64,000 nt of DNA from Candidatus Woesearchaeota archaeon (GTDB taxonomy: Archaea > Nanobdellota > Nanobdellia > Woesearchaeales > JACQSR01). Below are positions 23,166 to 35,473 of this stretch, piece by piece. Positions within the stretch are counted from its first letter, which is position 1; each line of letters opens with the position of its first letter. A model generated the notes under the pieces. The model was given only the letters and a program-made list of their open reading frames with translations, was not told the DNA's origin and did not search any database. Made by a program: the position numbers and the translations under genes. The stretch covers positions 6,546 through 70,545 of the forward strand of contig JACQSR010000008.1 of NCBI GenBank assembly GCA_016211215.1. Reading direction: 5' to 3'.

Positions 23166-24038
23166 ATGGCCCAGGCAACGCCTAATCCGGACTTGGAAGT
23201 AAGGGTGCGCACGCATAGTTCCATTACTGTTCCGGCTGCTGCTCCTGAATATCCAACAACTGTTCCGGTAATGCAATATGCTAATGAAGCACGGCAATAT
23301 GCTGCTGATGGAGTGCCGTACGAAACCGACCCACAAATAAACCCCGGAAATTATTTGCGTTTTGTCATGAATTTCTTAGGCACGGGTCATTTATATCAGA
23401 AAGCTGGGGTTTCTTATGATAAAAAAGGACAAGGATATGCAGTGCTGCAAAGAAACTCTGCAACTGGAGAGGCACCCAGCTTTGATTATGTTACGATGCC
23501 TCAATCCATTGATGATATTGCTGTTAATGCTCCTTCAAGCAGGATTTATTTAATTCCCTTGAAAAAGGCGGATGAGAAGGTGTATGGCTCAAGGGAAAAA
23601 GATGAAAAGAAGAAGCAGGGCATTGAAAGGGCTGTTGAAGCGTTAAAGAGTGCTTCTGACTCTAAAAAGAAATCCGAATATGTTAATCAGTATGATTCAA
23701 AATATTCCCCATATGATACTATCGAGGTTGAGAAAACAGAGGAGTCCAAAAAGCCGTATTTTGACCCTAGAATAAGTTTTCATGAGCAAGTGATAGCACT
23801 TGCTATGGCTAACAACAGGGATTCTTCTCCTGAAGTATTTGACAACACCCACACAAGAAATAATCCTCTGGTAAAGGCTAATGCGGAGGTTAAGGAAAGA
23901 TATTTCCAGCCTTATTCGAATGAGGTGTCGCCAGATGGTACGGCGGTTGCTTTGGGGATTATGGCAAATGCAGGGGTTTCTGTTGGTTCTGGCAAGGCCA
24001 AAGACAAGAGTCGGAAGGAAAGATACCTTAAAAATTGA
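23166..24038 (+). CDS. hypothetical protein
   Basis: Clean ORF. ATGA-type 4-nt overlap with the next gene. No motif recognised. Confidence 0.5.
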   Translation: MAQATPNPDLEVRVRTHSSITVPAAAPEYPTTVPVMQYANEARQYAADGVPYETDPQINPGNYLRFVMNFLGTGHLYQKAGVSYDKKGQGYAVLQRNSATGEAPSFDYVTMPQSIDDIAVNAPSSRIYLIPLKKADEKVYGSREKDEKKKQGIERAVEALKSASDSKKKSEYVNQYDSKYSPYDTIEVEKTEESKKPYFDPRISFHEQVIALAMANNRDSSPEVFDNTHTRNNPLVKANAEVKERYFQPYSNEVSPDGTAVALGIMANAGVSVGSGKAKDKSRKERYLKN

Positions 24039-24901
24039 GACACGAAACTAATTTAAACTTTCCCCTATCCAATTCTGAAATGTTCCCTCAGCTTAAAGAG
24101 AAATTAAAATCCAACATCAAAGCATTGGAAATCCTGGCTTTGATTAAGGGCAATAAAGCAGGCGCAAGGATTCTTGTGCGGGAAGATGATGCAAAGGCAA
24201 TGTGTGATTTTCTTGATGGAATTGGGATTCAGACAGTAAGTTCTGACTTCAAAGTTCTTAAAACTGATGCAGGGGCATATTCCGATGCAGGGGAAAAAAC
24301 CAAGGCGGATGACGCAAGGAAGGGCTATTATGTTTTTTACCTTTCAAAAGACCGAAGCGAGGCAGAAAAAATAAAAGCCCTTGAGGAAAGAAACGACCAT
24401 TACAATCTTGGAATTGCACTGGGGTATCCTGAATGCTGCTGCAGGTTTTTCCGGGAGAATTTCTCGGAAAAAAACACCGATTTGACGCTTTCAACGCTTG
24501 GCAATTCCAACGGCTTCAGATTTGATTTCCGCAGCAACATTGCGATGAGGCATTTTGATGTTTCCCTTCTTTTTCACTTCCCATGCTCCTTCAAATGCAA
24601 AGAATCCATGAAGATTGCAAAAGAAAACCTCCGGATTTTGGGAGGGGAAGACAGGGAATCGGCAAAAATCTTTGAGGGCATGCTTAAAGGGGCAGTAATT
24701 TACGGCGCTTCAAATGTAATCCTTCTCAGGCGCGCAAGGCTTGACGGCAAAAAGATTTATTACAACGGCCTTATGGCGCTGAACAGGAATGCACTTTACA
24801 GGCAGCTGAAAGAATCCGGGCATATTTTGGTCAATAGCCATGGAAGCTTTAAGGTGGGAAATACGGAATATTCCGGGATTGGAATTGCCTATTTTGAATG
24901 A
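24035..24901 (+). CDS. cysteine-motif protein (DUF483-like: GYPECC ... HFPCSFKC)
   Basis: LGIALGYPECCCRFF and LLFHFPCSFKCKES resemble the archaeal DUF483 signature as I recall it. Function unknown. Confidence 0.45.
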   Translation: MRHETNLNFPLSNSEMFPQLKEKLKSNIKALEILALIKGNKAGARILVREDDAKAMCDFLDGIGIQTVSSDFKVLKTDAGAYSDAGEKTKADDARKGYYVFYLSKDRSEAEKIKALEERNDHYNLGIALGYPECCCRFFRENFSEKNTDLTLSTLGNSNGFRFDFRSNIAMRHFDVSLLFHFPCSFKCKESMKIAKENLRILGGEDRESAKIFEGMLKGAVIYGASNVILLRRARLDGKKIYYNGLMALNRNALYRQLKESGHILVNSHGSFKVGNTEYSGIGIAYFE

Positions 24902-25919: not shown

Positions 25920-25943
25920 ACTGGGAGAAGAGCAGCCTGAAGG

Positions 25944-26528
25944 TTAAATAATTTTGGATTTCAGCCTTCCGTTGAGAACTTTCTGCAGGTTGGTGAGGTA
26001 TAGGGCGCATGATATGCACGCATTTTCAGCATCCCTTGAGTTTCCTGCAAACGCAACAACTAATGTGTCATTGCGCTGAAGATTGAATTCATTGCCGAGA
26101 AAAGAGAAATCTGCCCTGCTGTAGCACGGAATCTCAAGCCTGCTCCCGTAGCTCAGGATAAGAGCACCCTCTGCACCATTCTTGACCGCAATATCCCTTA
26201 CCTTGTAATCGGGGACATTTCTTGATTTTTTCCTTATTATGCATCCCTTTTCCTTCAGCTTTGGAAAAATACCTAGCCTTACGGATTTTGGCTGCCCCAT
26301 CATGAGGCCTATCTTTTCCATAAGATTTTTGCCCTTTCCGCTTAGAAAATGCCCCTCCTGGGTCGATGCTATAAGCCCGTTTCCCTTAAGCCCGTCCAGG
26401 ATGGTCCTTACGGTTCCCTCGCCAAGCTCCAGCGACCTAGACAGCTCAAGCCTGCTCACCGGCTCTTCAAGGTAAAACATGCTCCTTACCAAGTCAAGCG
26501 CAGAGTAATTTGGGATATTGCCTACCAT
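25944..26528 (-). CDS. winged-helix regulator-like protein (DUF4443-like)
   Basis: VSRLELSRSLELGEGTVRTILDGLKGNGLI is wHTH-like. The C-terminal domain is unassigned. Confidence 0.5.
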   Translation of the reverse strand: MVGNIPNYSALDLVRSMFYLEEPVSRLELSRSLELGEGTVRTILDGLKGNGLIASTQEGHFLSGKGKNLMEKIGLMMGQPKSVRLGIFPKLKEKGCIIRKKSRNVPDYKVRDIAVKNGAEGALILSYGSRLEIPCYSRADFSFLGNEFNLQRNDTLVVAFAGNSRDAENACISCALYLTNLQKVLNGRLKSKII

Positions 26529-26570
26529 GACACTGCAGTATACCGAAAAGCTTTAATACTTTGCGCTTGG

Positions 26571-27260
26571 TTGGATATTATATCCAATAAAGGGGTGGTT
26601 AGCATAGGAAAGGCAGATTCGATTGCCGACATCATAGATGCCGAGATAAGGAAACTGAAGAAAAGGGGCGAAAAGAAAAAAGCCGAAAAAAAACCAGCCG
26701 AAGGAGTAAAACTGCAGCCCAAAAAGCAGGAGTCCATAAACGACATCGTGAAGAAGCTGTCGAAAACTAAGCCGAAATCATTAACCGAAGATGAAAAAAA
26801 GGAGCTTGATATCTTAAAAGATATTTTTACCATGGTTAAATACCTCGACAAGGTTGAGGATAAAGACGCGTTCATAGCCAACCTCTACAGCCTAAGTCCG
26901 CGCGGGCAAAGCACGCCTTATGCAGGGGCAATGCCTCAGTCCCAATATGCGGACTACGGAAAGATATGGGGACATCTGGGGAAAGACACGGTTGTAAGGA
27001 TGTACGACGGGGATTTTTCTGCCGGCAGCTCTTCCGCGGGAACGACAAAGCAGGAGCTTGTTTCCTACCAGACGTTTGAGAAGAGCATGAAGAGCATAAA
27101 ATACTTCACACCTGGAGGCCACAGCTCCATAATGCTTGACGCGTTTTACGGGAACGTGCCGATGCACGGCGTTGATTCAAAGGAGTGGGAGAAGATGAAG
27201 CTTTACATGATGGTTGACAACGGCGTAATGTTCAAGCTGATGATGGGGACGGGGATTTAG
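26571..27260 (+). CDS. hypothetical Lys-rich protein (start uncertain)
   Basis: The track ORF starts at 26349 but its first ~60 codons overlap the opposite-strand gene 25944..26528. In-frame TTG at 26571 and GTG at 26595 are more plausible starts. Confidence 0.4.
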   Translation: MDIISNKGVVSIGKADSIADIIDAEIRKLKKRGEKKKAEKKPAEGVKLQPKKQESINDIVKKLSKTKPKSLTEDEKKELDILKDIFTMVKYLDKVEDKDAFIANLYSLSPRGQSTPYAGAMPQSQYADYGKIWGHLGKDTVVRMYDGDFSAGSSSAGTTKQELVSYQTFEKSMKSIKYFTPGGHSSIMLDAFYGNVPMHGVDSKEWEKMKLYMMVDNGVMFKLMMGTGI

Positions 27261-27361
27261 AATTGATTATTGCGCCATTTGAATCAGAATCCAATGTTAA
27301 ATGAAGTATTGTTTCAGTTGATGCTTGTTAAATGCAATAATTTTTTGGGATTAACGACGAA

Positions 27362-27374
27362 AGGGCGAGAAAAC
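27362..27374. repeat. left arm of 13-nt inverted repeat flanking the 27.4-29.1 kb cassette
   Basis: AGGGCGAGAAAAC. Its exact reverse complement GTTTTCTCGCCCT occurs at 29135-29147, with a 12-nt version GGTTTTCTCGCC at 29167-29178. Confidence 0.6.
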
Positions 27375-27448
27375 CTAATGACGACTCTAAAACCGAAAAA
27401 GTTATATTCTACAGCATATATTTGACTCAAGGGGGCGGGAAAACTAAG

Positions 27449-28531
27449 ATGAAAAAGATCTTCATGGTCACTTCGTTGATTTTCTTGTTAAGTAATAATC
27501 TAGTATTTGCCGATCCAGCCGAATATTTATTTAAGAACGAATCTTTGGGGCAAACAGATATGATTGTAGAAGTTAATGATCAAAACTATACAATTTATAA
27601 TATTGATAGGAGTCAAGAAGGTAACCTTTTACTTATAGATTCTAATGGATTTCTACCATCTGATGGAATAATACAAAAGAGTATCGTTACTTATTATACT
27701 TATTTATACATAAATAACCATGAAGAAGAAATTGAATCACACTTCCACATAACCGCCAATAAATTAGACAAAGAAGCAAAATCAAACTATCAAAAGATAC
27801 TCGATACTTTCAAATCTTTATCAGCAGTATGTGTAGATATTCCTCCTTTCCAGCTATTGCAAGTTTGTGTTAAACCTAGTGATAAATTGAGTATAATGAA
27901 AGTTACAATTGTAGTTGTCAAATTACTTCCAGACTGGAATATCGCACTTAATAATTACAAAAATCTTGGGGGCAATATTTTATATTTTACTGATAAATCA
28001 GATACAATGAGATATGGTTTTACCGAAGATCTATATAGTGATATTATTGCAACTTACAGTTTTCTTACTGTTGTCGAGGAAGTGACTGGTGAAAAATTTA
28101 CTGAGAATGATATTATTAAGCCGGAGAAGATTGCGAATGAAGTCGGCAAAAGTACAGAACTTGAATTTAACAGCATCAAACTTAGGTTATTCACATTAAA
28201 AGACTCTGAGAAAAGTAAGTTTGATCAGGTAAAATCAAAGATTAAAGAAATAAGTATCCTGATGAAGGATATTGCTAGAATAAATGGGGATTTGGACGAT
28301 ATTAAAACTAAGAACACCGGTTTGAAGGGTGAAATCGCACTGATAAGCTTAAATGATCAAAAATTGAGGTCAGATATAGACGATTTAGACAACATTTTAC
28401 TAAAAGCTGAGGAATTGAGAAAACAAGCCGAAAATTCATATACTACCCAACAAGATATTTACCAAAAAGAACGTTGGGACTCTAAGGCTATTGATTATGT
28501 TATGGGTTTAGTTAGGTCAATGGTTTACTAA
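27449..28531 (+). CDS. secreted protein with C-terminal coiled-coil (AT-rich orphan)
   Basis: Signal peptide MKKIFMVTSLIFLLSNNLVFA, preceded by an AAGGGGG SD-like sequence. The track starts at the TTG at 27422. No family recognised. Confidence 0.5.
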   Translation: MKKIFMVTSLIFLLSNNLVFADPAEYLFKNESLGQTDMIVEVNDQNYTIYNIDRSQEGNLLLIDSNGFLPSDGIIQKSIVTYYTYLYINNHEEEIESHFHITANKLDKEAKSNYQKILDTFKSLSAVCVDIPPFQLLQVCVKPSDKLSIMKVTIVVVKLLPDWNIALNNYKNLGGNILYFTDKSDTMRYGFTEDLYSDIIATYSFLTVVEEVTGEKFTENDIIKPEKIANEVGKSTELEFNSIKLRLFTLKDSEKSKFDQVKSKIKEISILMKDIARINGDLDDIKTKNTGLKGEIALISLNDQKLRSDIDDLDNILLKAEELRKQAENSYTTQQDIYQKERWDSKAIDYVMGLVRSMVY

Positions 28532-28532
28532 A

Positions 28533-29135
28533 ATGAAAGATTTCAACAAGAATAAGATTATTGAACAAATCTTACTTTCCCTAGAGAGGTTCCAGAAAGA
28601 ACTAGGGTCTGTATCCGGTTCAGAAAGATTTTTCTCCTCAATAACTCTATTTGACCAGATGGAAAAAGGAGTATTAGCAAATCTTCTATTTGAACTTTGG
28701 GAAAGGAATATTCAATCTGCTCTAAACAAATATTGCAGTATGATAGATAAAATAAAAGAAAGTCGTGGAAACATCTTAAAAGTAAATCCAAAATATAATC
28801 AATTCAAAAGAGAAGGTGAGGTTATAAAAAGGGAACAAGATATTACAATTAAAGATAAATTAGAAAAATATAAATCATTATTTGAAAAGACCACTATTGA
28901 AATAAACTATTTAAAAGATAATAATACAAGCTTAATTAGTGAAGGTAAAAGAAGTTATTTGAAAATATACCTCCTTTGTGCAACTTTAATAACTGCTTTT
29001 TATTCAACTGTTGTAGGATTTTATTTTAGTGGTGATGTATCTGCTATAAATAAGAATTTAGTGTTGGTGATTATAATATGGGCGGCTATATTATTCTTTC
29101 TATGGAATAAACTGTTTGAGTGGATTAACAAGTAG
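28533..29135 (+). CDS. hypothetical protein with two C-terminal TM helices
   Basis: Starts 1 nt after the upstream stop. YLLCATLITAFYSTVVGFYF and LVLVIIIWAAILFFLW are TM-like. Confidence 0.5.
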   Translation: MKDFNKNKIIEQILLSLERFQKELGSVSGSERFFSSITLFDQMEKGVLANLLFELWERNIQSALNKYCSMIDKIKESRGNILKVNPKYNQFKREGEVIKREQDITIKDKLEKYKSLFEKTTIEINYLKDNNTSLISEGKRSYLKIYLLCATLITAFYSTVVGFYFSGDVSAINKNLVLVIIIWAAILFFLWNKLFEWINK

Positions 29136-29178
29136 TTTTCTCGCCCTCCCACCACTACGACTAAACGGTTTTCTCGCC
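29135..29178. repeat. right arm(s) of inverted repeat
   Basis: GTTTTCTCGCCCT (29135-29147, starting in the stop codon of 28533..29135) and GGTTTTCTCGCC (29167-29178). Confidence 0.6.
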
Positions 29179-29300
29179 TTGATTCTTGTTCTTGATGTGT
29201 CGCTTTGTTCCTTTGATGGAACTTAGCCCAAAAATTACTTTTCGGACGAAATTTTCCCACACTTTGTAGGGGAAAAGAGTATAACAAGTATCCCTGGGTT

Positions 29301-29528
29301 TTAAAGCAATTTCAGGAATTCCTCTTTCTTCAAACCCGACTGGCGTATAATCTCCAGGAGCGTGCCCCTGTCTACTTCGTCATGCAACGGAACAACTGTT
29401 ACCTTTGTGCCTTCCGAAGTTTCTTTCCTCAGAATAACGTGACTCCCTTTCTGTCTTGCGGCAACAAACCCGTATTTTGTTAGAATTTTGATGACATCCT
29501 TACCGGAAAGTCTAGGCAGCTTTTGCAT
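29301..29528 (-). CDS. hicA: HicA-family mRNA interferase toxin
   Basis: LSGKDVIKILTKYGFVAARQKGSHVILRK is the YcfA/HicA signature (G.H). 75 aa. Confidence 0.85.
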   Translation of the reverse strand: MQKLPRLSGKDVIKILTKYGFVAARQKGSHVILRKETSEGTKVTVVPLHDEVDRGTLLEIIRQSGLKKEEFLKLL

Positions 29529-29733
29529 TTTCCTTTACAGCAAAGCGGGCAATTATTGCTTCTTTCCCCTTAAACTCCTGAGGCAGACCCATCTCTTCTA
29601 TGTACAGTTCAACGGCTTCCTTTAGGTTGGAAAGAGATTCTTCTACTGTATAACCCTGGCTAACAATGTCCACTTCAGGACACAATGCAACATACTGTTT
29701 CTCTCCTTTTCTGATAATAGCTGTAAAGTCCAT
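29512..29733 (-). CDS. hicB: HicB-family antitoxin (UPF0150 fold)
   Basis: FTAIIRKGEKQYVALCPEVDIVSQGYTVEESLSNLKEAVELYIE is a typical HicB N-domain. Overlaps hicA by 17 nt. Confidence 0.8.
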   Translation of the reverse strand: MDFTAIIRKGEKQYVALCPEVDIVSQGYTVEESLSNLKEAVELYIEEMGLPQEFKGKEAIIARFAVKENAKAA

Positions 29734-29803
29734 ACAATTCGCCTGTTTATGTTAGTAGTGCACTCTACTTTATAAAACTTTCATTAAACAACAAGAATTC
29801 AAA

Positions 29804-32005
29804 TCACTCCATCGGCACTGCAGACCACAATGTCCAGTCGTTTGACGGAGAGTATCCTCCAAACACATATTGTGGAGGCCTGTTCTGGCCGAAATAGGAA
29901 TACTGGATTTCGCCCCATACCTGAGGCTGAGCAGCCCTTGCGCCCCCTATGCCATACACGGGGCTTCCAAACTGCCTCCATGCCTTCATAAGCCCGTGGA
30001 AATCTGAAACATCAGTTGAAGCGTCTGCACCAGGCTCTACCGTAATTGCCTTGTCGTAGCCGTTCTTCTTCAGGAGCTTAATCACGTCCTGTATGGGCGC
30101 ATTTCCCTGTCCGGGCGCAAGATGGTCATCCTGAAACCCAAAGTTGTCAACAATATGCACGTTCTTAATCATCTTTGATTCTGCAAGCTTCTTAACCTGT
30201 TCCACATACCACTTGTTGAATGCCTCCTCGTTCTGCTCCAATGTCAATCCCGGCTGTGGGTCCCAGTATTTCCTCCACAAATTCAGATGCCCGGTGTCAA
30301 GGGTAACGCCTATGTGCGTTTCTGCAATCTTTGCCGCTTCTTCTTTGCTCATTCCGGGCTTATAGAAAGGGTTTGCCCTCTCCTGGGGTTTTCCCTCACT
30401 GAACCACTTGGTTCTTTCTTCGGGCGTAAGGGGCTCTCCAACTCCGTACCTGTCTGTGGGTGTGGTGAGGAATTCGACCATCTTTTCCCTTGATTTTTTA
30501 ATAAGCCACACAAGCTCTTCAGGATGCCCGCCAAACCTGTCAGGAAATAAATTTTCCACGGTAAGATACAACGGCTTGTCGGGGTTTTTCGAACGCTCCC
30601 AGGCGCGTATGCCAAGCTCTGCATAGAATCTTGTCGGGTGCCTCTCAAGCCTTTTAATAGGAGTTACAAGGTGAAGCCTTGTCTCATAGGTATCCTGCGC
30701 CTGCTGCTCCTGCGATGTTGATGCCTGTTTCGCAAACTCAAGGTTTTTTGAATTGTCATGGAGGGCTTCCTTAAGCCATTCTGAAGGAAGCTTGTTCTCG
30801 GGAGGCAAAAATGTGCCTCCAACTCCAAGCCCACGGACAAACTGAGTGTCTGATTTCATTAATTTCCAAAGCTCTTCCTTTGGGGTTGTTTCTTCAAGTT
30901 TTTTGTAGAAGTCGTATGCCTTCTCTAATTTGGTTATGTTTTCGATTCTTTCATCAGCCTCTCGTCCGTACTGCAATGCCCATCCGCGGGAGTGAGCCTC
31001 GTTTGTGAGCAGTGTTGCATGAAGAAATGCCTCTTCAGGGTATCTTTTTTCATAATAATCCGGCTTCCTTCCGTTCTTCAGCTCGAACACCTTGTTTTCC
31101 TCTTCGGCAACTTTCCTGAAATCATCGAAGTGGAGATACCTCGTCTGAAAACGACCTTTTTCCCTATCGTACTTTGGAACCCTGCCTTTAATGGGGTCGT
31201 AAATATCCTTAAGAGGTATAAGCTTGCCCTGATAATCGGTATAATCACCCTTCTTAATGCTGGTAGGATTGTCCCAAATGTCCTTTCCGTCGTAATCCTT
31301 TTCTGAAACATTCCAGTCCGGGAATGCAACAACTCTATCGCCCTGTACGGTTTCCATGACCTGGGAAGTTCGGTCGTCAAGCAATACATAGGCCGCATCT
31401 ACAGGTTCAGAATGGCGTTTCCTGAACATCAATCTTCCTGTCTTTGGGTCAACTGCGAGGTTATGCTTTCCGGTCTCGTCGTCTATCACCATGCCCACAA
31501 TAGGCCTTTCAAACTCGCCGGTGTGCATTACAATCGAGCCGGAGCCTGCAACGTCAGCTGCGAAGTCAACTGCCCGTGCAATCTCATCCTTGCAGAGCTT
31601 TGCGTTTGTGATGGAGAAATTTCCCCGCTCATCACGCCCCATCAGCCCCATTACGTTGTAAGCTGCATGCGTGGTAAAATTAACCTCGTTTATGGCGCCC
31701 ATCTCGCGCAATGCCTGGCGCTGGTCGTGGCCGTAAACTCCGGGCGTATGAGCGCCGCGCTGAGAGGAAAATGCACCCGGAAATCCCAATTCAATTGCGC
31801 CAACACCCATCCTGATTTTAGAGTAAACGCCTGCAACATTTGCAGCGGATATTCCCAACGGGACAGACATTCCAACGTCCTTGATGCCATACCCTAAACC
31901 CGATAAGTCCTTCTTATCCCGAGGCTGTGGAGAAGAGCGGCCATAAGTTTCGGAGTCCATGGAGTTAAAGTAATCAACCATAGGGTGATAGTTGTAGAAC
32001 TGCAT
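29804..32005 (-). CDS. xylose-isomerase-like TIM-barrel (AP endonuclease 2 / sugar-phosphate isomerase superfamily) protein with ~315-aa internal insertion
   Basis: Barrel motifs: GAIELGFPG, FTTHAAY, SIVMHTGE, then after the insertion LYLTVENLFP, VTLDTGHLNLW, VHIVDNFGFQDDHLAPGQGNAPIQDVIKLLKKNGYDKAITVEPG. Confidence 0.7.
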   Translation of the reverse strand: MQFYNYHPMVDYFNSMDSETYGRSSPQPRDKKDLSGLGYGIKDVGMSVPLGISAANVAGVYSKIRMGVGAIELGFPGAFSSQRGAHTPGVYGHDQRQALREMGAINEVNFTTHAAYNVMGLMGRDERGNFSITNAKLCKDEIARAVDFAADVAGSGSIVMHTGEFERPIVGMVIDDETGKHNLAVDPKTGRLMFRKRHSEPVDAAYVLLDDRTSQVMETVQGDRVVAFPDWNVSEKDYDGKDIWDNPTSIKKGDYTDYQGKLIPLKDIYDPIKGRVPKYDREKGRFQTRYLHFDDFRKVAEEENKVFELKNGRKPDYYEKRYPEEAFLHATLLTNEAHSRGWALQYGREADERIENITKLEKAYDFYKKLEETTPKEELWKLMKSDTQFVRGLGVGGTFLPPENKLPSEWLKEALHDNSKNLEFAKQASTSQEQQAQDTYETRLHLVTPIKRLERHPTRFYAELGIRAWERSKNPDKPLYLTVENLFPDRFGGHPEELVWLIKKSREKMVEFLTTPTDRYGVGEPLTPEERTKWFSEGKPQERANPFYKPGMSKEEAAKIAETHIGVTLDTGHLNLWRKYWDPQPGLTLEQNEEAFNKWYVEQVKKLAESKMIKNVHIVDNFGFQDDHLAPGQGNAPIQDVIKLLKKNGYDKAITVEPGADASTDVSDFHGLMKAWRQFGSPVYGIGGARAAQPQVWGEIQYSYFGQNRPPQYVFGGYSPSNDWTLWSAVPME

Positions 32006-32006
32006 G

Positions 32007-33407
32007 CTAGCGCCCCCAATTCAGCATGCCGTGGTGCTTCTTGAAATGGTGGTAAGTTCCCCACGTGGCTTTTCTCACCAAAGGGTCTGCCTCCTTTCTT
32101 GCAAGCTCCTGCTTCCATGCCTTGTTCTTGTCAACTTTTGGCTTAGATGGTTTTGGATTCCTAAATGTGGTGGAAAATCCCTTTAGTATTGAGGAAAGCG
32201 GCCCATAATATTTTGGGGGTGTTTCTTTCGGCTTTAACGTGCCTATGTCTTCTCCGGCCTCCTTCAGGTATTTCATCAATTCATCGCCCATGGCGTCCAT
32301 CGCAGCTTTAATGGAGGAATCAATGACTTCCAAAAGCCTGAATTCCTCCTCGTCGCGCATGCTCCTGTACTTTTTAATTTCATCATCGCTCCAGACATAT
32401 GCGCGGAAGTCAATCATGACCCTGCCAACGTGAACCGGGCCGCGCTGGTATTCCTGGGAATAGCTCATCTCAGGGCGCGTACGGTAGAGGTAATGCATAA
32501 GCACGACCTCATTTATTCCCGTATCTTTTACAGGTTTTCTTGCAAGAATCTCAATCTCTATCATTGAAGTTTCAAATGCAACAACCAAGTCTGCAGTATC
32601 AACCTTGTTCTGGTCAAGGGTAAGCCTCCTGATGTTTTTCAGGTACGGCTTCGCCCATGCCATGTACATCTTGATGATTTCATAATGCTGCCTTAGGTAT
32701 TTCAGGGTAAACTTCCTCCTGTTCTTGAGCTCTTCATAGGTATGCTCCTTCCAGGCAAGGTATGCGCGGAGCTTTCTCTTCAGGACTTCACGGACCTTGC
32801 GGTTGAACTGGCCGCGCTCACGCTCGACAACCTCGTCGACATCCTCCTGCTGGAAGGGATGGGTGGAGAAGAACAAATCAGGCAAAGTTGTAAACTGCAC
32901 CTCGCGGGCCATTCCATAGACGGATGCAGGGTTCTTTGCCCCCTGCTCGACCATATCCACCCATATTCCCTTTAATGTAATTTCCGCGGATTCGCGGCTC
33001 CTGCTGTTTGCGTATGAGTCAGCATAGTAGCCGAGCCTCTCGTCAAGTATCCTAAGCTCGCGCACAAGCTGGAATATTTCCTTGACCATCTTGCCGATGG
33101 TTGCAAGAAACTGGGACACCTTGTCCTGCTGGGCTCCAAGGCGCTGCTGGGCTGCGCCAAAAAAAGCAGAATTTTCAGCTGCCGAGAAAACATCCGTAAT
33201 CTTGTCAATATAGGGATAGCCATGAAAATACCTCAGATAGTCCAGAACCCAGAAGTAGGGCTCTTCAACCGAGATGTTAAATCCCTCTATGTAGAGCTTG
33301 TACCTCACCAAAGGCTTAGGGTAGCCTGTGGGAATGGTAGGGCCATTGCGGGTTTCCTCGTCCTTTTCTATGCCGAAACCGAACTTTGCTATGTCTACTG
33401 GCTCCAA
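32007..33407 (-). CDS. conserved-looking hypothetical protein, mostly helical, basic C-terminal tail
   Basis: Stop codon is 1 nt from the start of the TIM-barrel gene. Core-like codon usage by eye. No motif recognised. Confidence 0.6.
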   Translation of the reverse strand: MEPVDIAKFGFGIEKDEETRNGPTIPTGYPKPLVRYKLYIEGFNISVEEPYFWVLDYLRYFHGYPYIDKITDVFSAAENSAFFGAAQQRLGAQQDKVSQFLATIGKMVKEIFQLVRELRILDERLGYYADSYANSRSRESAEITLKGIWVDMVEQGAKNPASVYGMAREVQFTTLPDLFFSTHPFQQEDVDEVVERERGQFNRKVREVLKRKLRAYLAWKEHTYEELKNRRKFTLKYLRQHYEIIKMYMAWAKPYLKNIRRLTLDQNKVDTADLVVAFETSMIEIEILARKPVKDTGINEVVLMHYLYRTRPEMSYSQEYQRGPVHVGRVMIDFRAYVWSDDEIKKYRSMRDEEEFRLLEVIDSSIKAAMDAMGDELMKYLKEAGEDIGTLKPKETPPKYYGPLSSILKGFSTTFRNPKPSKPKVDKNKAWKQELARKEADPLVRKATWGTYHHFKKHHGMLNWGR

Positions 33408-33438: not shown

Positions 33439-33726
33439 TCATGGCTTATATATAGTTTTTCCTTTTTGCAATACTATTATATTTCCAACGCTTTCCACCA
33501 ATACTGCATCAACCCTTTTGCTGATTTGAAGGGCCAGTTCCCTAGAACTTTTGCCGGAAGCATATGATTTCAGCAGCTTTATTTTTATCAGGACTTTTTT
33601 GTCCAACTGGGACCTGATTTCTTTTATCATTGCATCGCTTAACCCGTTTTTTCCTATCCTAAGCATCGGCTCAAGACCCTTTGCCCTTGCTTTAATCCTA
33701 TTCATGGCGCGGATGCTCATGGCCAA
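33439..33726 (-). CDS. YhbY/CRS1 (CRM-domain) RNA-binding protein
   Basis: LEPMLRIGKNGLSDAMIKEIRSQLDKKVLIKIKLL matches the YhbY pattern (iGk.Glt......i...l..hELiKvk). The start may be the internal ATG at 33705, which would avoid overlap with the antiporter gene. Confidence 0.8.
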   Translation of the reverse strand: MAMSIRAMNRIKARAKGLEPMLRIGKNGLSDAMIKEIRSQLDKKVLIKIKLLKSYASGKSSRELALQISKRVDAVLVESVGNIIVLQKGKTIYKP

Positions 33727-35473
33727 GCCTCTTTCTTTCTTTCAGTTCGTCAATGTGCGCAACCTTAAGCTTCAATATGCTCTTGAGGTCCCTGTGGTAA
33801 TCTTCAATCATCATGGATATGTGCTTGCCGCCCAGGAAGTGGGGCAATATCACGTAATCTGCCCCCTTTTCGTACAATGTCAGCGCCTCATCAATCTGGT
33901 TTGCGGTCAATATTATGGATATCTTCGGGTTTTCCTTCTTTGCCTTCTCTATAATCATCTCGTTGTCATTCAGGGTAGGAACCGTTGAGATAACTATCCT
34001 CGCGTGCTTGAGGTCAACCCGCTCCATGATTTCATTGTTGCCTATGTCGCCAAATATGCAGGGCACTTTTTCCTCCTTCAGCTTTCTTATGACATCCGGG
34101 TTGTAATCTATCACCAGCATCTTCTTCTTCAGGCGCTTCAATGTATTGCCTATGGAAAATCCTATCCTGTTGTAGCCGCAGACAATTACGTCGTACCTGC
34201 CCTTCGGCACATTCCCCAAGTTTGCGGAAGTTGCGGTAACCTTGTCAAGGCCGGAGATGTAGGATGACATCCAAAGGTAGATTGGAGTTTCATATTCCAT
34301 AAGGTAAGAGGTTATGATTATTGAGAAGACAGCCAAAAGGATGGTTATGGTTACTATGCCTTGCGAAACATGGCCGAGCAGAAATCCCTGCGATACCAAA
34401 ATAAGCGAGAATTCCGAAATCTGGCCCAATGAAATTCCTGCAATGAAAGACGGCCTGTGGAGGTAGCCAAAGAATGAAACCAGGATGAACACTATGAGGG
34501 GCTTTAGAGCCACGACGAGGACAAGCAATGCAACAAAAGGAAGGATAACTTCCCTTACCGAGCTGATGGAAACTCCAAGGCCCAGGCTCACAAAGAATAT
34601 TGTGGAAAAAAAGTCCCTAAGCGGCTTTACCTGCCCGATAATCTGGAAGTTGAATGGCAGGCCTGCAAGGCCAACTCCTGCAGCAAATGCGCCTATTGCA
34701 ATTGAAAATCCCGGGCTAAGGACATTGATTATTTCGCCGCTTAAACTGACATCAATGTTTTGCAGTATGGAAACTATTATGCTGCCTATGTGCTGGAACA
34801 GCAAAGAGATTGCAAAAAGGAATGTTATGGCCATGAGGAACAGTATTTCCTGGTTTTTTGCGGCGCGCCTGAAAATATGGGGGATAATGAGGCGGGTGAA
34901 TACAACAACAAGCCCAATAAGGATTACTGCCTTTACGGCAGAAATCAGCATGAAAAATCCGGAGAAGGAATCGACTGACCTTAGTATTGAAAGGGAGATT
35001 ATTGCGACAATGTCCTGAACTATGAGGATTCCGATTATTATCCTGCCGTGCAGTGTGTCTATGGAGCGCTTGTCCGATAATATCTTGACAATCACCATGG
35101 TGGAGCTCAATGCAACTATGAGCCCCAGATAGACAGACTCTATCTTTCCGAATCCAAAAATCAGTGACAGCAGAAATGCAGCGGAAAACAGGGAAATAAT
35201 CTGGGCAAGGCCGCCTATTGACGCAACAGCGCCAACCTCACGAAGCTTTCTGAGGTCAAGCTCCAATCCCGCAATAAAAAGCAGGAAGGCTATTCCTATC
35301 TCGGACAATGTTCCGATTATGCCTGAGTTGGTTATAATCCCCAGAAGAGGGCCTAAGATTACGCCTGCAACAACATACGCAGGAATCATGGGCTGATTTA
35401 TCATCCTTGCAAGGTATGAAAGTATTGTTGCAACTATCAACATAATGCCAATGGCAAGGAATATGTCTTCCAT
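33698..35473 (-). CDS. Kef-type monovalent cation:proton antiporter (CPA2) with C-terminal RCK/TrkA-N domain
   Basis: About 12 TM helices. Rossmann-like VIVCGYNRIGFSIGNTL followed by an RCK-like domain. Confidence 0.9.
   Translation of the reverse strand: MEDIFLAIGIMLIVATILSYLARMINQPMIPAYVVAGVILGPLLGIITNSGIIGTLSEIGIAFLLFIAGLELDLRKLREVGAVASIGGLAQIISLFSAAFLLSLIFGFGKIESVYLGLIVALSSTMVIVKILSDKRSIDTLHGRIIIGILIVQDIVAIISLSILRSVDSFSGFFMLISAVKAVILIGLVVVFTRLIIPHIFRRAAKNQEILFLMAITFLFAISLLFQHIGSIIVSILQNIDVSLSGEIINVLSPGFSIAIGAFAAGVGLAGLPFNFQIIGQVKPLRDFFSTIFFVSLGLGVSISSVREVILPFVALLVLVVALKPLIVFILVSFFGYLHRPSFIAGISLGQISEFSLILVSQGFLLGHVSQGIVTITILLAVFSIIITSYLMEYETPIYLWMSSYISGLDKVTATSANLGNVPKGRYDVIVCGYNRIGFSIGNTLKRLKKKMLVIDYNPDVIRKLKEEKVPCIFGDIGNNEIMERVDLKHARIVISTVPTLNDNEMIIEKAKKENPKISIILTANQIDEALTLYEKGADYVILPHFLGGKHISMMIEDYHRDLKSILKLKVAHIDELKERKRLGHEHPRHE

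Follow-up and report, generated by a model that had tools for sequence, protein, structure and literature searches.

Two coupled genes in a Woesearchaeota genome

A stretch of 64,000 nucleotides (nt) of contig JACQSR010000008.1, from a Candidatus Woesearchaeota archaeon (hereafter, the window), carries on its minus strand two adjacent open reading frames (ORFs) whose products, of 466 and 733 amino acids (aa), are called here hel and TIM, respectively. Both are 100% identical to proteins deposited from the same Candidatus Woesearchaeota metagenome-assembled genome (MAG): hel corresponds to MBI4439563.1 ('hypothetical protein HY638_01165') and TIM to MBI4439562.1 ('sugar phosphate isomerase/epimerase'). 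We observed that TIM is a xylose isomerase-like barrel split by a long insertion, that hel appears to form an unclassified family, and that the two genes occur together in most of the loci in which this could be evaluated; from these results, we consider that both proteins may be the subunits of a metalloenzyme.

The two genes are tightly coupled in the window. As an earlier, sequence-only reading of this region had noted, the start of TIM lies 1 nt from the stop of hel, the TAG codon being followed by a single base and then by the ATG. G-rich, Shine-Dalgarno-like runs are found 8-12 nt 5' of both starts, and the one that precedes TIM sits within the last codons of hel. This 1-nt coupling is confined to the sublineage of the window. 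The GC content across the region of the pair (0.47-0.48) is ordinary for the window, and the Rfam and tRNA scans of the window gave no matches.

TIM is a complete barrel interrupted by an insertion

The sole Pfam family detected on TIM was PF01261 (AP_endonuc_2, xylose isomerase-like TIM barrel; E = 1.5e-15, residues 546-659), to which the intact protein scored 58 bits, the gathering threshold being 31.1. When residues 169-471 and 516-552 were removed in silico, the match extended over positions 7-230 of the 249 positions of the profile (E = 2.5e-16, 60.6 bits). Since the insertion-less protein covers nearly the whole profile, the barrel is complete but interrupted. PF01261 was present in all the 120 TIM homologues listed, with the exception of one truncated protein. 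The AlphaFold2 model of TIM, obtained with 38 homologues (predicted local distance difference test, pLDDT, 73.8; predicted template modelling score, pTM, 0.75), showed a (beta/alpha)8 fold, with the eight strands assigned by DSSP to residues 44-49, 70-74, 109-113, 156-161, 479-484, 565-570, 613-618 and 654-656. TIM is a genuine AP_endonuc_2/xylose isomerase-like barrel split by an insertion.

The main insertion, of about 310 aa (about residues 162-478, nt about 30572-31520), exits the barrel between strands 4 and 5. The sequence-only reading was right about its nucleotide coordinates and about the splitting of the barrel, but it had placed the insertion between the third and fourth of the motifs that it listed, and it lies between the second and the third (IVMHTGE and LTVEN). 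In the model, which describes this region mostly at pLDDT 85-95, the insertion consists of a beta-rich subdomain (about residues 205-291) and, after it, of a long hairpin of helices (295-311, 323-373, 376-392, 407-444 and 449-471). It is constant within the TIM family, whose members are labeled 'sugar phosphate isomerase/epimerase' in GenBank, and it is kept, but shorter, in relatives at 30% identity. Neither the single sequence of the insertion nor a profile of ten diverse members matched any entry of Pfam, NCBIfam or the PDB, nor was it found in any characterised enzyme. A second insertion, at about residues 515-553, is smaller and variable.

Both ends of TIM, 31 residues at the N-terminus and 54 at the C-terminus, are unstructured in the monomer model. 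The C-terminal tail is conserved down to 30% overall identity; it is Gly/Tyr/Trp-rich, as had been described, but it spans about 54 aa (residues 680-733) and not the 70 or so initially estimated. TIM is mildly acidic (isoelectric point, pI, 6.0), without transmembrane segments.

The metal site of TIM is invariant among distant relatives

The metal-binding motifs of the AP-endonuclease-2/sugar-phosphate isomerase barrel that had been recognised in the 733-aa protein were all present: FTTHAAY (H113), IVMHTGE (H161), LTVEN (E484), LDTGH (D570 and H573), VHIVDN..QDDHLAPGQGN (H617, D626 and H628) and TVEPG (E657). To evaluate their conservation, we aligned 38 TIM homologues at 54-77% identity, and then included three relatives at about 30%. 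Residues H113, H161, E164, E484, N485, D570, H573, H617, D620, H628 and E657 were invariant in this set, while D626 was Asp in all but one distant member, in which it is His. The Glu-Asp-His-Glu metal core (E484, D570, H617, E657) is therefore part of the invariant set, and in the model strands 3-8 carry the conserved ligand residues at their C-terminal ends. A metal site of nine residues that is kept even at 30% identity indicates that TIM is an active metalloenzyme, and presumably the catalytic subunit of the pair.

The closest solved relative of TIM is MJ1311 (PDB 3WQO), which was recovered with phmmer (E = 1.2e-4), with the family profile (1.8e-6) and with the insertion-less profile (1.4e-9), and which was also the best Foldseek match of the TIM model (probability 1.0). 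The match to the insertion-less profile comprises three collinear stretches, of which the one including strands 7-8 scores strongly alone and the other two are weak singly. The Foldseek matches (3wqo, 3cqi, 3qc0 and 7dz3) had probabilities of 0.96-1.0, and each of the solved relatives has a single domain and a length of about 270-300 aa. A weak NCBIfam match to the phosphodiesterase CbiR, which belongs to the same superfamily, was also observed. The structure paper of MJ1311 (Uechi et al., 2014) reportedly describes it as keeping the nine metal ligands of endonuclease IV. In the sequence of E. coli endonuclease IV (Nfo) that we compared, identical to PDB 1QTW, we checked that positions 69, 109, 145, 179, 182, 216, 229, 231 and 261 read H, H, E, D, H, H, D, H and E; these nine positions are well established as the ligands of its three zinc ions (Hosfield et al., 1999). 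All of them have a counterpart in TIM by motif and topology, without a significant alignment. Profile searches of the PDB with the TIM family recovered no Nfo chain and, because the direct profile comparison was not significant, the link to Nfo rests on the motifs, the topology and MJ1311. Judging from its motifs and from the match to MJ1311, the TIM family is a multi-metal barrel of the MJ1311/endonuclease IV type, and not of the tagatose-epimerase type as annotated.

hel is a highly conserved protein outside the known families

No match to hel was found in Pfam or NCBIfam with the protein of the window, nor in the PDB by sequence or by profile. Foldseek searches with its model returned only noise (best E of 0.08 in the PDB and of 0.004 in BFVD, with template modelling scores below 0.2), PADLOC gave a single weak match (ZorA, E = 0.0098), PHROGs gave none, and no match was obtained by tblastn against the records of phages and plasmids. 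When 48 hel members with 29-49% identity to the protein of the window were analysed with Pfam, no family was common to more than two of them; one matched zinc-ribbon domains (E = 1.4e-5 and 3.6e-4), apparently in an N-terminal extension, and the other matches were scattered, with E values of 0.004 or weaker. Similarity to RRE or DUF2063 was not detectable with Pfam, although the hel model is of low confidence. The claim that the 466-aa protein could not be placed in any family thus held for Pfam, NCBIfam, the PDB, Foldseek-PDB, BFVD and PADLOC/PHROGs, none of which gave a characterised family. By these searches, hel seems to represent an unclassified family, whose members observed so far are all from Nanoarchaeia.

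Several candidate identities were discarded. The apparent likeness of hel to START/Bet v1-like proteins, BabA, TolC and viral polymerases was within the Foldseek noise, and for the same reason we dropped a lipid-transfer START domain and a phage portal or capsid protein. An origin in a mobile element or a defence system was rejected because PADLOC, PHROGs and tblastn gave nothing beyond the weak match to ZorA. Homology of hel to TIM or to its insertion was also rejected, since hhalign of the two family alignments detected none.

The AlphaFold2 model of hel has a modest confidence (pLDDT 63, pTM 0.54). The protein had been described as largely helical, which agrees with most of the model, although five beta strands are also present (residues 34-43, 66-72, 283-292, 298-310 and 327-340). 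On either side of a long helical region (86-281), to which helices 86-131 and 224-266 belong, these strands are found. The chain continues with a Lys/Arg-rich linker (389-426), which is disordered, and with a confident and conserved C-terminal helix (427-458), and the protein ends in ..YHHFKKHHGMLNW. hel is basic (pI 9.1), with net charges of +11 over residues 201-282 and +13 over 389-466, and soluble, showing no hydrophobic stretch typical of a membrane span. Its long invariant blocks include ..ITLKGIWVD.VEQGAKNPASVYGM.REVQFTTLPDLFF.., which is modeled at pLDDT <50, as would be the case if it folded upon contact with a partner.

We retrieved 2045 homologues of hel, the top 120 of which are 65-84% identical to it; an exhaustive search of 1.84 billion representatives gave 521 clusters at 50% identity (E up to 1e-3). 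All the homologues with an organism name are labeled as Woesearchaeota, Nanoarchaeota, Nanoarchaeia or Nanobdellota. Dozens of GTDB records that carry the pair (L010, L013, L017 and L020, among others) are titled 'uncultured Methanosarcinales archaeon' (binchicken MAGs); hel in these records is 57-69% identical to Woesearchaeota hel, so the label is probably a placeholder or an error. When the median identity to the protein of the window was compared in the same loci, hel reached 66%, followed by a carbohydrate kinase (59%), TIM (53%), a methyltransferase (49%), a Kef exchanger (47%), YhbY (43%) and an acidic protein (34%). hel is the most conserved gene of its neighbourhood.

hel and TIM are conserved together

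To determine how often the two genes occur together, GTDB was scanned using one genome per species. Relatives of hel were present in 204 stretches, from which 80 loci were kept, and a locus was considered testable when it included more than 2.6 kb downstream of hel. Of the 62 testable loci, 60 have TIM downstream of hel in the same orientation, at a distance of 2-1375 nt in 56 of them and of 3.4-7.1 kb in the other four. A metagenome scan seeded with distant hel sequences showed TIM downstream in 36 of 45 loci; the order hel then TIM on the same strand was thus observed in 96 of the 107 testable loci of both scans. Across relatives, hel and TIM are 2 nt to about 2.4 kb apart, except in four loci with a distance of more than 3 kb, up to about 7 kb. 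The reverse check, starting from TIM, revealed hel directly upstream in the three loci examined. No fused hel-TIM protein was present among the homologues listed.

Three distant hel proteins, 33-41% identical to each other, are each followed by a PF01261 protein of 648-713 aa, and in two of these loci (L082 and L084) the flanks are entirely different while the order and strand of the pair are kept. The pair is therefore retained in lineages at about 35% hel identity with unrelated flanking genes. Additionally, in a mirror-tree comparison of 25 loci, the pairwise distances of hel and TIM were correlated (r = 0.82; 0.80 as a partial correlation controlling for Kef), the correlation between hel and Kef being 0.39. 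The co-conservation of the pair, singled out for checking by the sequence-only reading, is accordingly supported by both scans, by the reverse check and by the distant loci. The pair is carried by at least about 200 species-level genomes, and all the members found are from Woesearchaeota/Nanoarchaeia.

Genes around the pair

The neighbouring genes were counted with hidden Markov models (HMMs) built from the loci, across 157 hel loci, many of them on short contigs. A recurrent array was observed, consisting of a Kef exchanger, YhbY, hel, TIM, an acidic coiled-coil protein, an S-adenosylmethionine (SAM) methyltransferase, a DUF483-like protein encoded on the opposite strand, and a Pol-beta-type nucleotidyltransferase. 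The Kef exchanger and the acidic protein were each present in 58 loci, the methyltransferase in 42, the nucleotidyltransferase in 40 and YhbY in 31. As each of them occurs in a fraction of the loci, we treat these neighbours as leads and not as components of the system, YhbY and Kef being regarded simply as context. The features of the window are listed in Table 1.

Table 1. Location of the gene pair, of the segments of TIM and of the neighbouring genes in the window
Feature	Position	Strand	Evidence or remarks
hel gene	32007..33407	(-)	ORF, 466 aa, TTG start
TIM gene	29804..32005	(-)	ORF, 733 aa, ATG start
TIM N-terminal tail, residues 1-40	31886..32005	(-)	Aromatic-rich (MQFYNYHPMVDYFNSMD..), disordered in the model, kept in close relatives
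TIM barrel strands 1-4, residues 41-165	31511..31885	(-)	H113 ends strand 3, H161 ends strand 4
TIM family-specific insertion, residues 166-474	30584..31510	(-)	Beta subdomain and helical hairpin, from the model
TIM barrel strands 5-8, residues 475-679	29969..30583	(-)	E484, D570, H573, H617, D620, D626, H628, E657
TIM C-terminal tail, residues 680-733	29807..29968	(-)	Gly/Tyr/Trp/Phe-rich, ends ..W..WS.VP[LMFI]E-COOH
YhbY/CRS1 RNA-binding protein gene	33439..33726	(-)	PF01985, 1.6e-17; 31-nt spacer upstream of hel
Kef-type Na+/H+ exchanger with TrkA_N domain	33698..35473	(-)	ORF; 29-nt overlap with the yhbY start
Acidic coiled-coil protein, 150 aa	25467..25919	(-)	No Pfam match; HMM synteny
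SAM methyltransferase, 177-178 aa	24889..25425	(-)	Weak matches to DOT1 / archaeal protein-lysine methyltransferase
DUF483-like protein gene	24035-24901	(+)	Array HMM
Pol-beta-type nucleotidyltransferase, 265 aa	19789..20586	(-)	PF01909, 4.4e-9; local HMM, 4e-147
HicA toxin gene	29301-29528	(-)	PF07927, 5e-19
HicB-like gene	29512-29733	(-)	Weak match, 0.007; end overlapped by the HicA gene

Given the overlap and the short spacer that separate them, Kef, yhbY, hel and TIM may form one transcription unit in the window. The acidic protein (150-180 aa) evolves fast and is without any family match; its orthologues are usually encoded directly after TIM, and in a few loci between hel and TIM (L083, 9476-10015). 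It is a possible third component. The distances of the methyltransferase track those of hel (r = 0.76) and TIM (r = 0.72) much better than those of Kef do. The acidic protein and the methyltransferase were nevertheless rejected as subunits, since, though frequent neighbours and in the case of the methyltransferase co-varying, neither is present in the most divergent loci.

The nucleotidyltransferase (265-270 aa) is encoded downstream of TIM in 36 loci. In 11 of them, all from a divergent clade, it lies within 100 nt of TIM (the gaps listed are 13-71 nt), and copies are present in the divergent loci L082 (11293-12105) and L084 (11698-12504). In the clade of the window it is located 1.5-4.6 kb past TIM, and 9.2 kb in the window itself. 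It may be a third functional partner; as an obligatory third member of the system it was discarded, since only about half of the loci that extend 3 kb or more past TIM show the link, and a tight one is seen only in the divergent clade. No conserved ORF for a small precursor peptide was detected in the array with the locus HMMs.

In the window, a block of about 4 kb (about 25920-29800) with a low GC content (0.36-0.41) breaks the array immediately past TIM; it holds a HicAB pair and three plus-strand ORFs without a convincing family (26349-27260, 27422-28531 and 28533-29135). This block looks like a recent insertion into an array that is contiguous in most relatives. The HicA and HicB-like genes lie directly downstream of TIM, in a gap of about 500 nt of the listing of 60-aa ORFs.

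Some loci show other gene arrangements. In one groundwater Woesearchaeota genome (L001/L007, 11426-11680), a gene for an 84-aa MtN3/PQ-loop (half-SWEET-like) membrane protein is located between hel and TIM. A hel subclade without TIM as the next gene (L098, 7722-12284) has instead a 99-aa ORF and a gene for a secreted protein of 1520 aa that is extremely cysteine-rich. A lipoprotein signal peptidase (Peptidase_A8) gene is found immediately upstream of hel in L082 (7438-7827, minus strand) and L084 (7573-8001, plus strand), on the strand opposite to hel in one of these loci and on the same strand in the other.

A putative two-subunit metalloenzyme

On the basis of these results, we tentatively favor, with a probability of about 0.4, the reading that hel and TIM form an obligate metalloenzyme in which hel is the basic, non-catalytic partner; the enzyme would probably be a phosphoesterase with a polymer as its substrate. 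The two proteins would be the subunits of an enzyme that is restricted to Woesearchaeota and their relatives among Nanoarchaeia and that is probably either abundant or essential. TIM would carry out catalysis by means of the nine His/Asp/Glu ligands on the C-terminal face of its barrel, which are predicted to bind two or three metal ions; the insertion, which grows from the loop between strand 4 and helix 4 beside the metal site, would use its beta subdomain and its helical hairpin of about 50 residues as a surface for substrate recognition and docking. We infer that hel and TIM form a physical complex held together by the long helices and by the aromatic tails, which are conserved, and that hel may bring in or hold a large anionic substrate. 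The presence of an insertion by the metal site, of conserved aromatic tails that are unstructured, and of a hel gene that persists suggests a large substrate, an obligate protein interface, or both. The chemistry would most likely be a metal-activated hydrolysis of phosphoesters in a polymer, for which nucleic acid is the leading candidate; such hydrolysis is also the reaction of endonuclease IV and of the phosphodiesterase CbiR, members of the same superfamily. The recurrence near the pair of RNA- and nucleotide-related genes (YhbY and the Pol-beta nucleotidyltransferase) was also counted in favor of this proposal.

Several observations weigh against it. In 11 loci, TIM is absent within 3-10 kb of hel; in these loci the entire local synteny is lost, and in at least one of them (L131, on a contig of 79,795 nt) both genes are on the contig, six genes apart by their accession numbers. 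The correlation obtained by the mirror-tree comparison comes from 25 related loci and is soft evidence. The comparison with hhalign of the TIM family and E. coli Nfo, using both the full and the insertion-less alignments, gave probabilities of 0.3-0.4% with a shifted register, no Nfo model was matched in the NCBIfam scan of TIM up to an E of 10, and the best named matches of TIM are sugar epimerases, all of them far under the cut-offs. MJ1311 is reported to be devoid of the DNA-binding groove of endonuclease IV (Uechi et al., 2014). Finally, TIM and its insertion are without net positive charge, and YhbY and the nucleotidyltransferase, which are partly conserved, could reflect inherited synteny.

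It seems rather unlikely that TIM is, as annotated, an isomerase/epimerase of small sugars or sugar phosphates, with hel as an unrelated or regulatory neighbour. The annotated function agrees with PF01261 being the only Pfam match of TIM, with the names of the top NCBIfam models (fructoselysine 3-epimerase, hydroxypyruvate isomerase, IolO and psicose epimerase), with the D-allulose/tagatose epimerases, UlaE and the sugar isomerase returned by Foldseek at probabilities of 0.96-1.0, and with the presence in TIM of the E-D-H-E core of those enzymes. However, the scores against the NCBIfam epimerase/isomerase equivalogs were all of 11-29 bits, the cut-offs being about 300 or more (26.9-28.6 bits vs. 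305 for the best model, fructoselysine 3-epimerase, and 14.4 vs. 300 for PsicseEpim), and the additional invariant residues H113, H161 and D626-x-H628 are not found in tagatose epimerases. An insertion of 310 aa by the active site and a partner with 66% identity would be unexpected for an isomerase of small sugars, and a co-conservation of about 90% argues against hel being an unrelated neighbour.

We also considered that the pair could be mainly structural, its coiled coils and aromatic tails building a large cytoplasmic assembly such as a filament, a lattice or a condensate, with a secondary or vestigial catalytic site. The high conservation of hel, the largest of its neighbourhood, its invariant segments (140-200) modeled at low confidence as if they folded on binding only, the conserved but unstructured aromatic tails of TIM together with its long helical hairpin, and the absence of transmembrane segments would fit with this idea; it is made distinctly unlikely by the strict invariance at 30% identity of nine metal-ligand positions, which indicates a working active site, and by the Foldseek searches, which detected no repeat or known filament fold. 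That the adjacency of two functionally unrelated genes is merely an inherited gene order of one archaeal order, as might be thought from the long syntenic array of unrelated housekeeping genes shared by the close clade and from the variable hel-TIM spacing, sometimes with other genes in between, is quite improbable, since order and strand persist where the flanks were replaced (L082 and L084), the link between hel and TIM (96/107) is much stronger than the others (Kef 58/157 and YhbY 31/157, with many short contigs), and the distances of both proteins co-vary.

A broader version of the two-subunit metalloenzyme, which we regard as a long shot, is that hel and TIM, perhaps with the acidic coiled-coil protein, constitute a Nanoarchaeia-wide machine in which a protein of new fold would gather an enzyme with a tri-metal site like that of endonuclease IV into a large assembly via coiled coils and aromatic tails, performing for these host-dependent archaea a core function that is done by different proteins in other archaea. 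Candidate roles for such a machine are the processing or repair of nucleic acid ends and the cleavage of the phosphodiester head groups of scavenged host lipids. If hel-TIM were indeed a lineage-specific replacement of a universal function, the metabolic and repair capacities inferred for DPANN would change, and the widespread annotation 'sugar phosphate isomerase/epimerase' would be corrected. Woesearchaeota and their relatives are abundant, uncultured and genome-reduced, and much of their biology resides in uncharacterised proteins. The pair is more conserved than the housekeeping genes that surround it, and since hel cannot be related to anything known while the catalytic centre of TIM is recognisable, it represents a tractable entry point.

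Comparison with known systems

The D-tagatose/D-psicose 3-epimerases and the UlaE-type epimerases share with TIM the fold and the E-D-H-E metal core, and both its GenBank annotation and the names of its best NCBIfam and Foldseek matches derive from them. In contrast with TIM (733 aa), the tagatose/psicose epimerases have a single domain and measure about 290 aa; in the D-tagatose 3-epimerases, the alignment leaves a gap of 5 residues where TIM has its D-x-H loop (..DNlGyqdeH..), and the extra His ligands of TIM are missing.

The MNIO enzymes (MbnB/TglH/ChrH, DUF692) have a barrel of the superfamily of TIM that, according to the literature, works only with an adjacent non-catalytic partner. The ligands of MNIOs form a multi-metal set like that of endonuclease IV, and MbnC and TglI are examples of the partners that these enzymes need. 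The analogy in architecture could mean that TIM uses an iron cluster and oxygen on a peptide or protein, with hel as the substrate-binding partner or the substrate itself. We give little credence to this possibility: PF05114/DUF692 did not match TIM, even as the insertion-less barrel and with E up to 10; the locus HMMs showed no conserved small precursor-peptide gene in the array; hel differs in size from the known partner proteins, being far larger, and is far more conserved; and many of the carriers come from anoxic groundwater or sediment, where an oxygen-dependent chemistry would be less likely.

Endonuclease IV (Nfo, 1QTW) belongs to the same PF01261 barrel superfamily as TIM, and the correspondence between them can be followed along the barrel, from LPHDSY/FTTHAAY, NFHPGS/VMHTGE, VIEN/TVEN and IDTCH/LDTGH to MHLND/VHIVDN, VDRHHSLGEGN/QDDHLAPGQGN and LILET/TVEPG (Nfo/TIM). 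The two proteins differ in their organisation: Nfo, of 285 aa, works alone and has five DNA-binding loops, whereas TIM has a large insertion in the loop between strand 4 and helix 4 and a partner gene.

The closest counterpart is MJ1311 of Methanocaldococcus jannaschii ('D-tagatose 3-epimerase-like protein'), whose motifs THA, VVVH, DxGH, VHxxDN, DDEH and IE align with H113, H161, D570, H573, H617, D626-H628 and E657 of TIM. The identity is only about 18% over the aligned barrel, and MJ1311 is a single domain of 293 aa, without the insertion, the aromatic tails or a known hel-like partner. Table 1 of PMC2770678 gives it as the endonuclease IV homologue predicted in M. jannaschii, and this table was the only result of our literature searches on MJ1311 and on Woesearchaeota/DPANN with this enzyme class. 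MJ1311 is itself uncharacterised, so the likeness transfers no activity to TIM.

In the literature accessible to our searches, we found no description of the pairing of hel and TIM. As the sequence-only reading had suggested, the architecture and the pairing are not familiar from characterised pathways: hel fell in no well-characterised family, the insertion is not a feature of any characterised enzyme, and the genes are co-conserved. What is new in this known superfamily is the combination of an MJ1311/endonuclease IV-type site with an insertion of about 310 aa that matches no known domain and with conserved tails. The function of hel-TIM would also inform that of the MJ1311-type barrels, which have been solved structurally without an assigned role.

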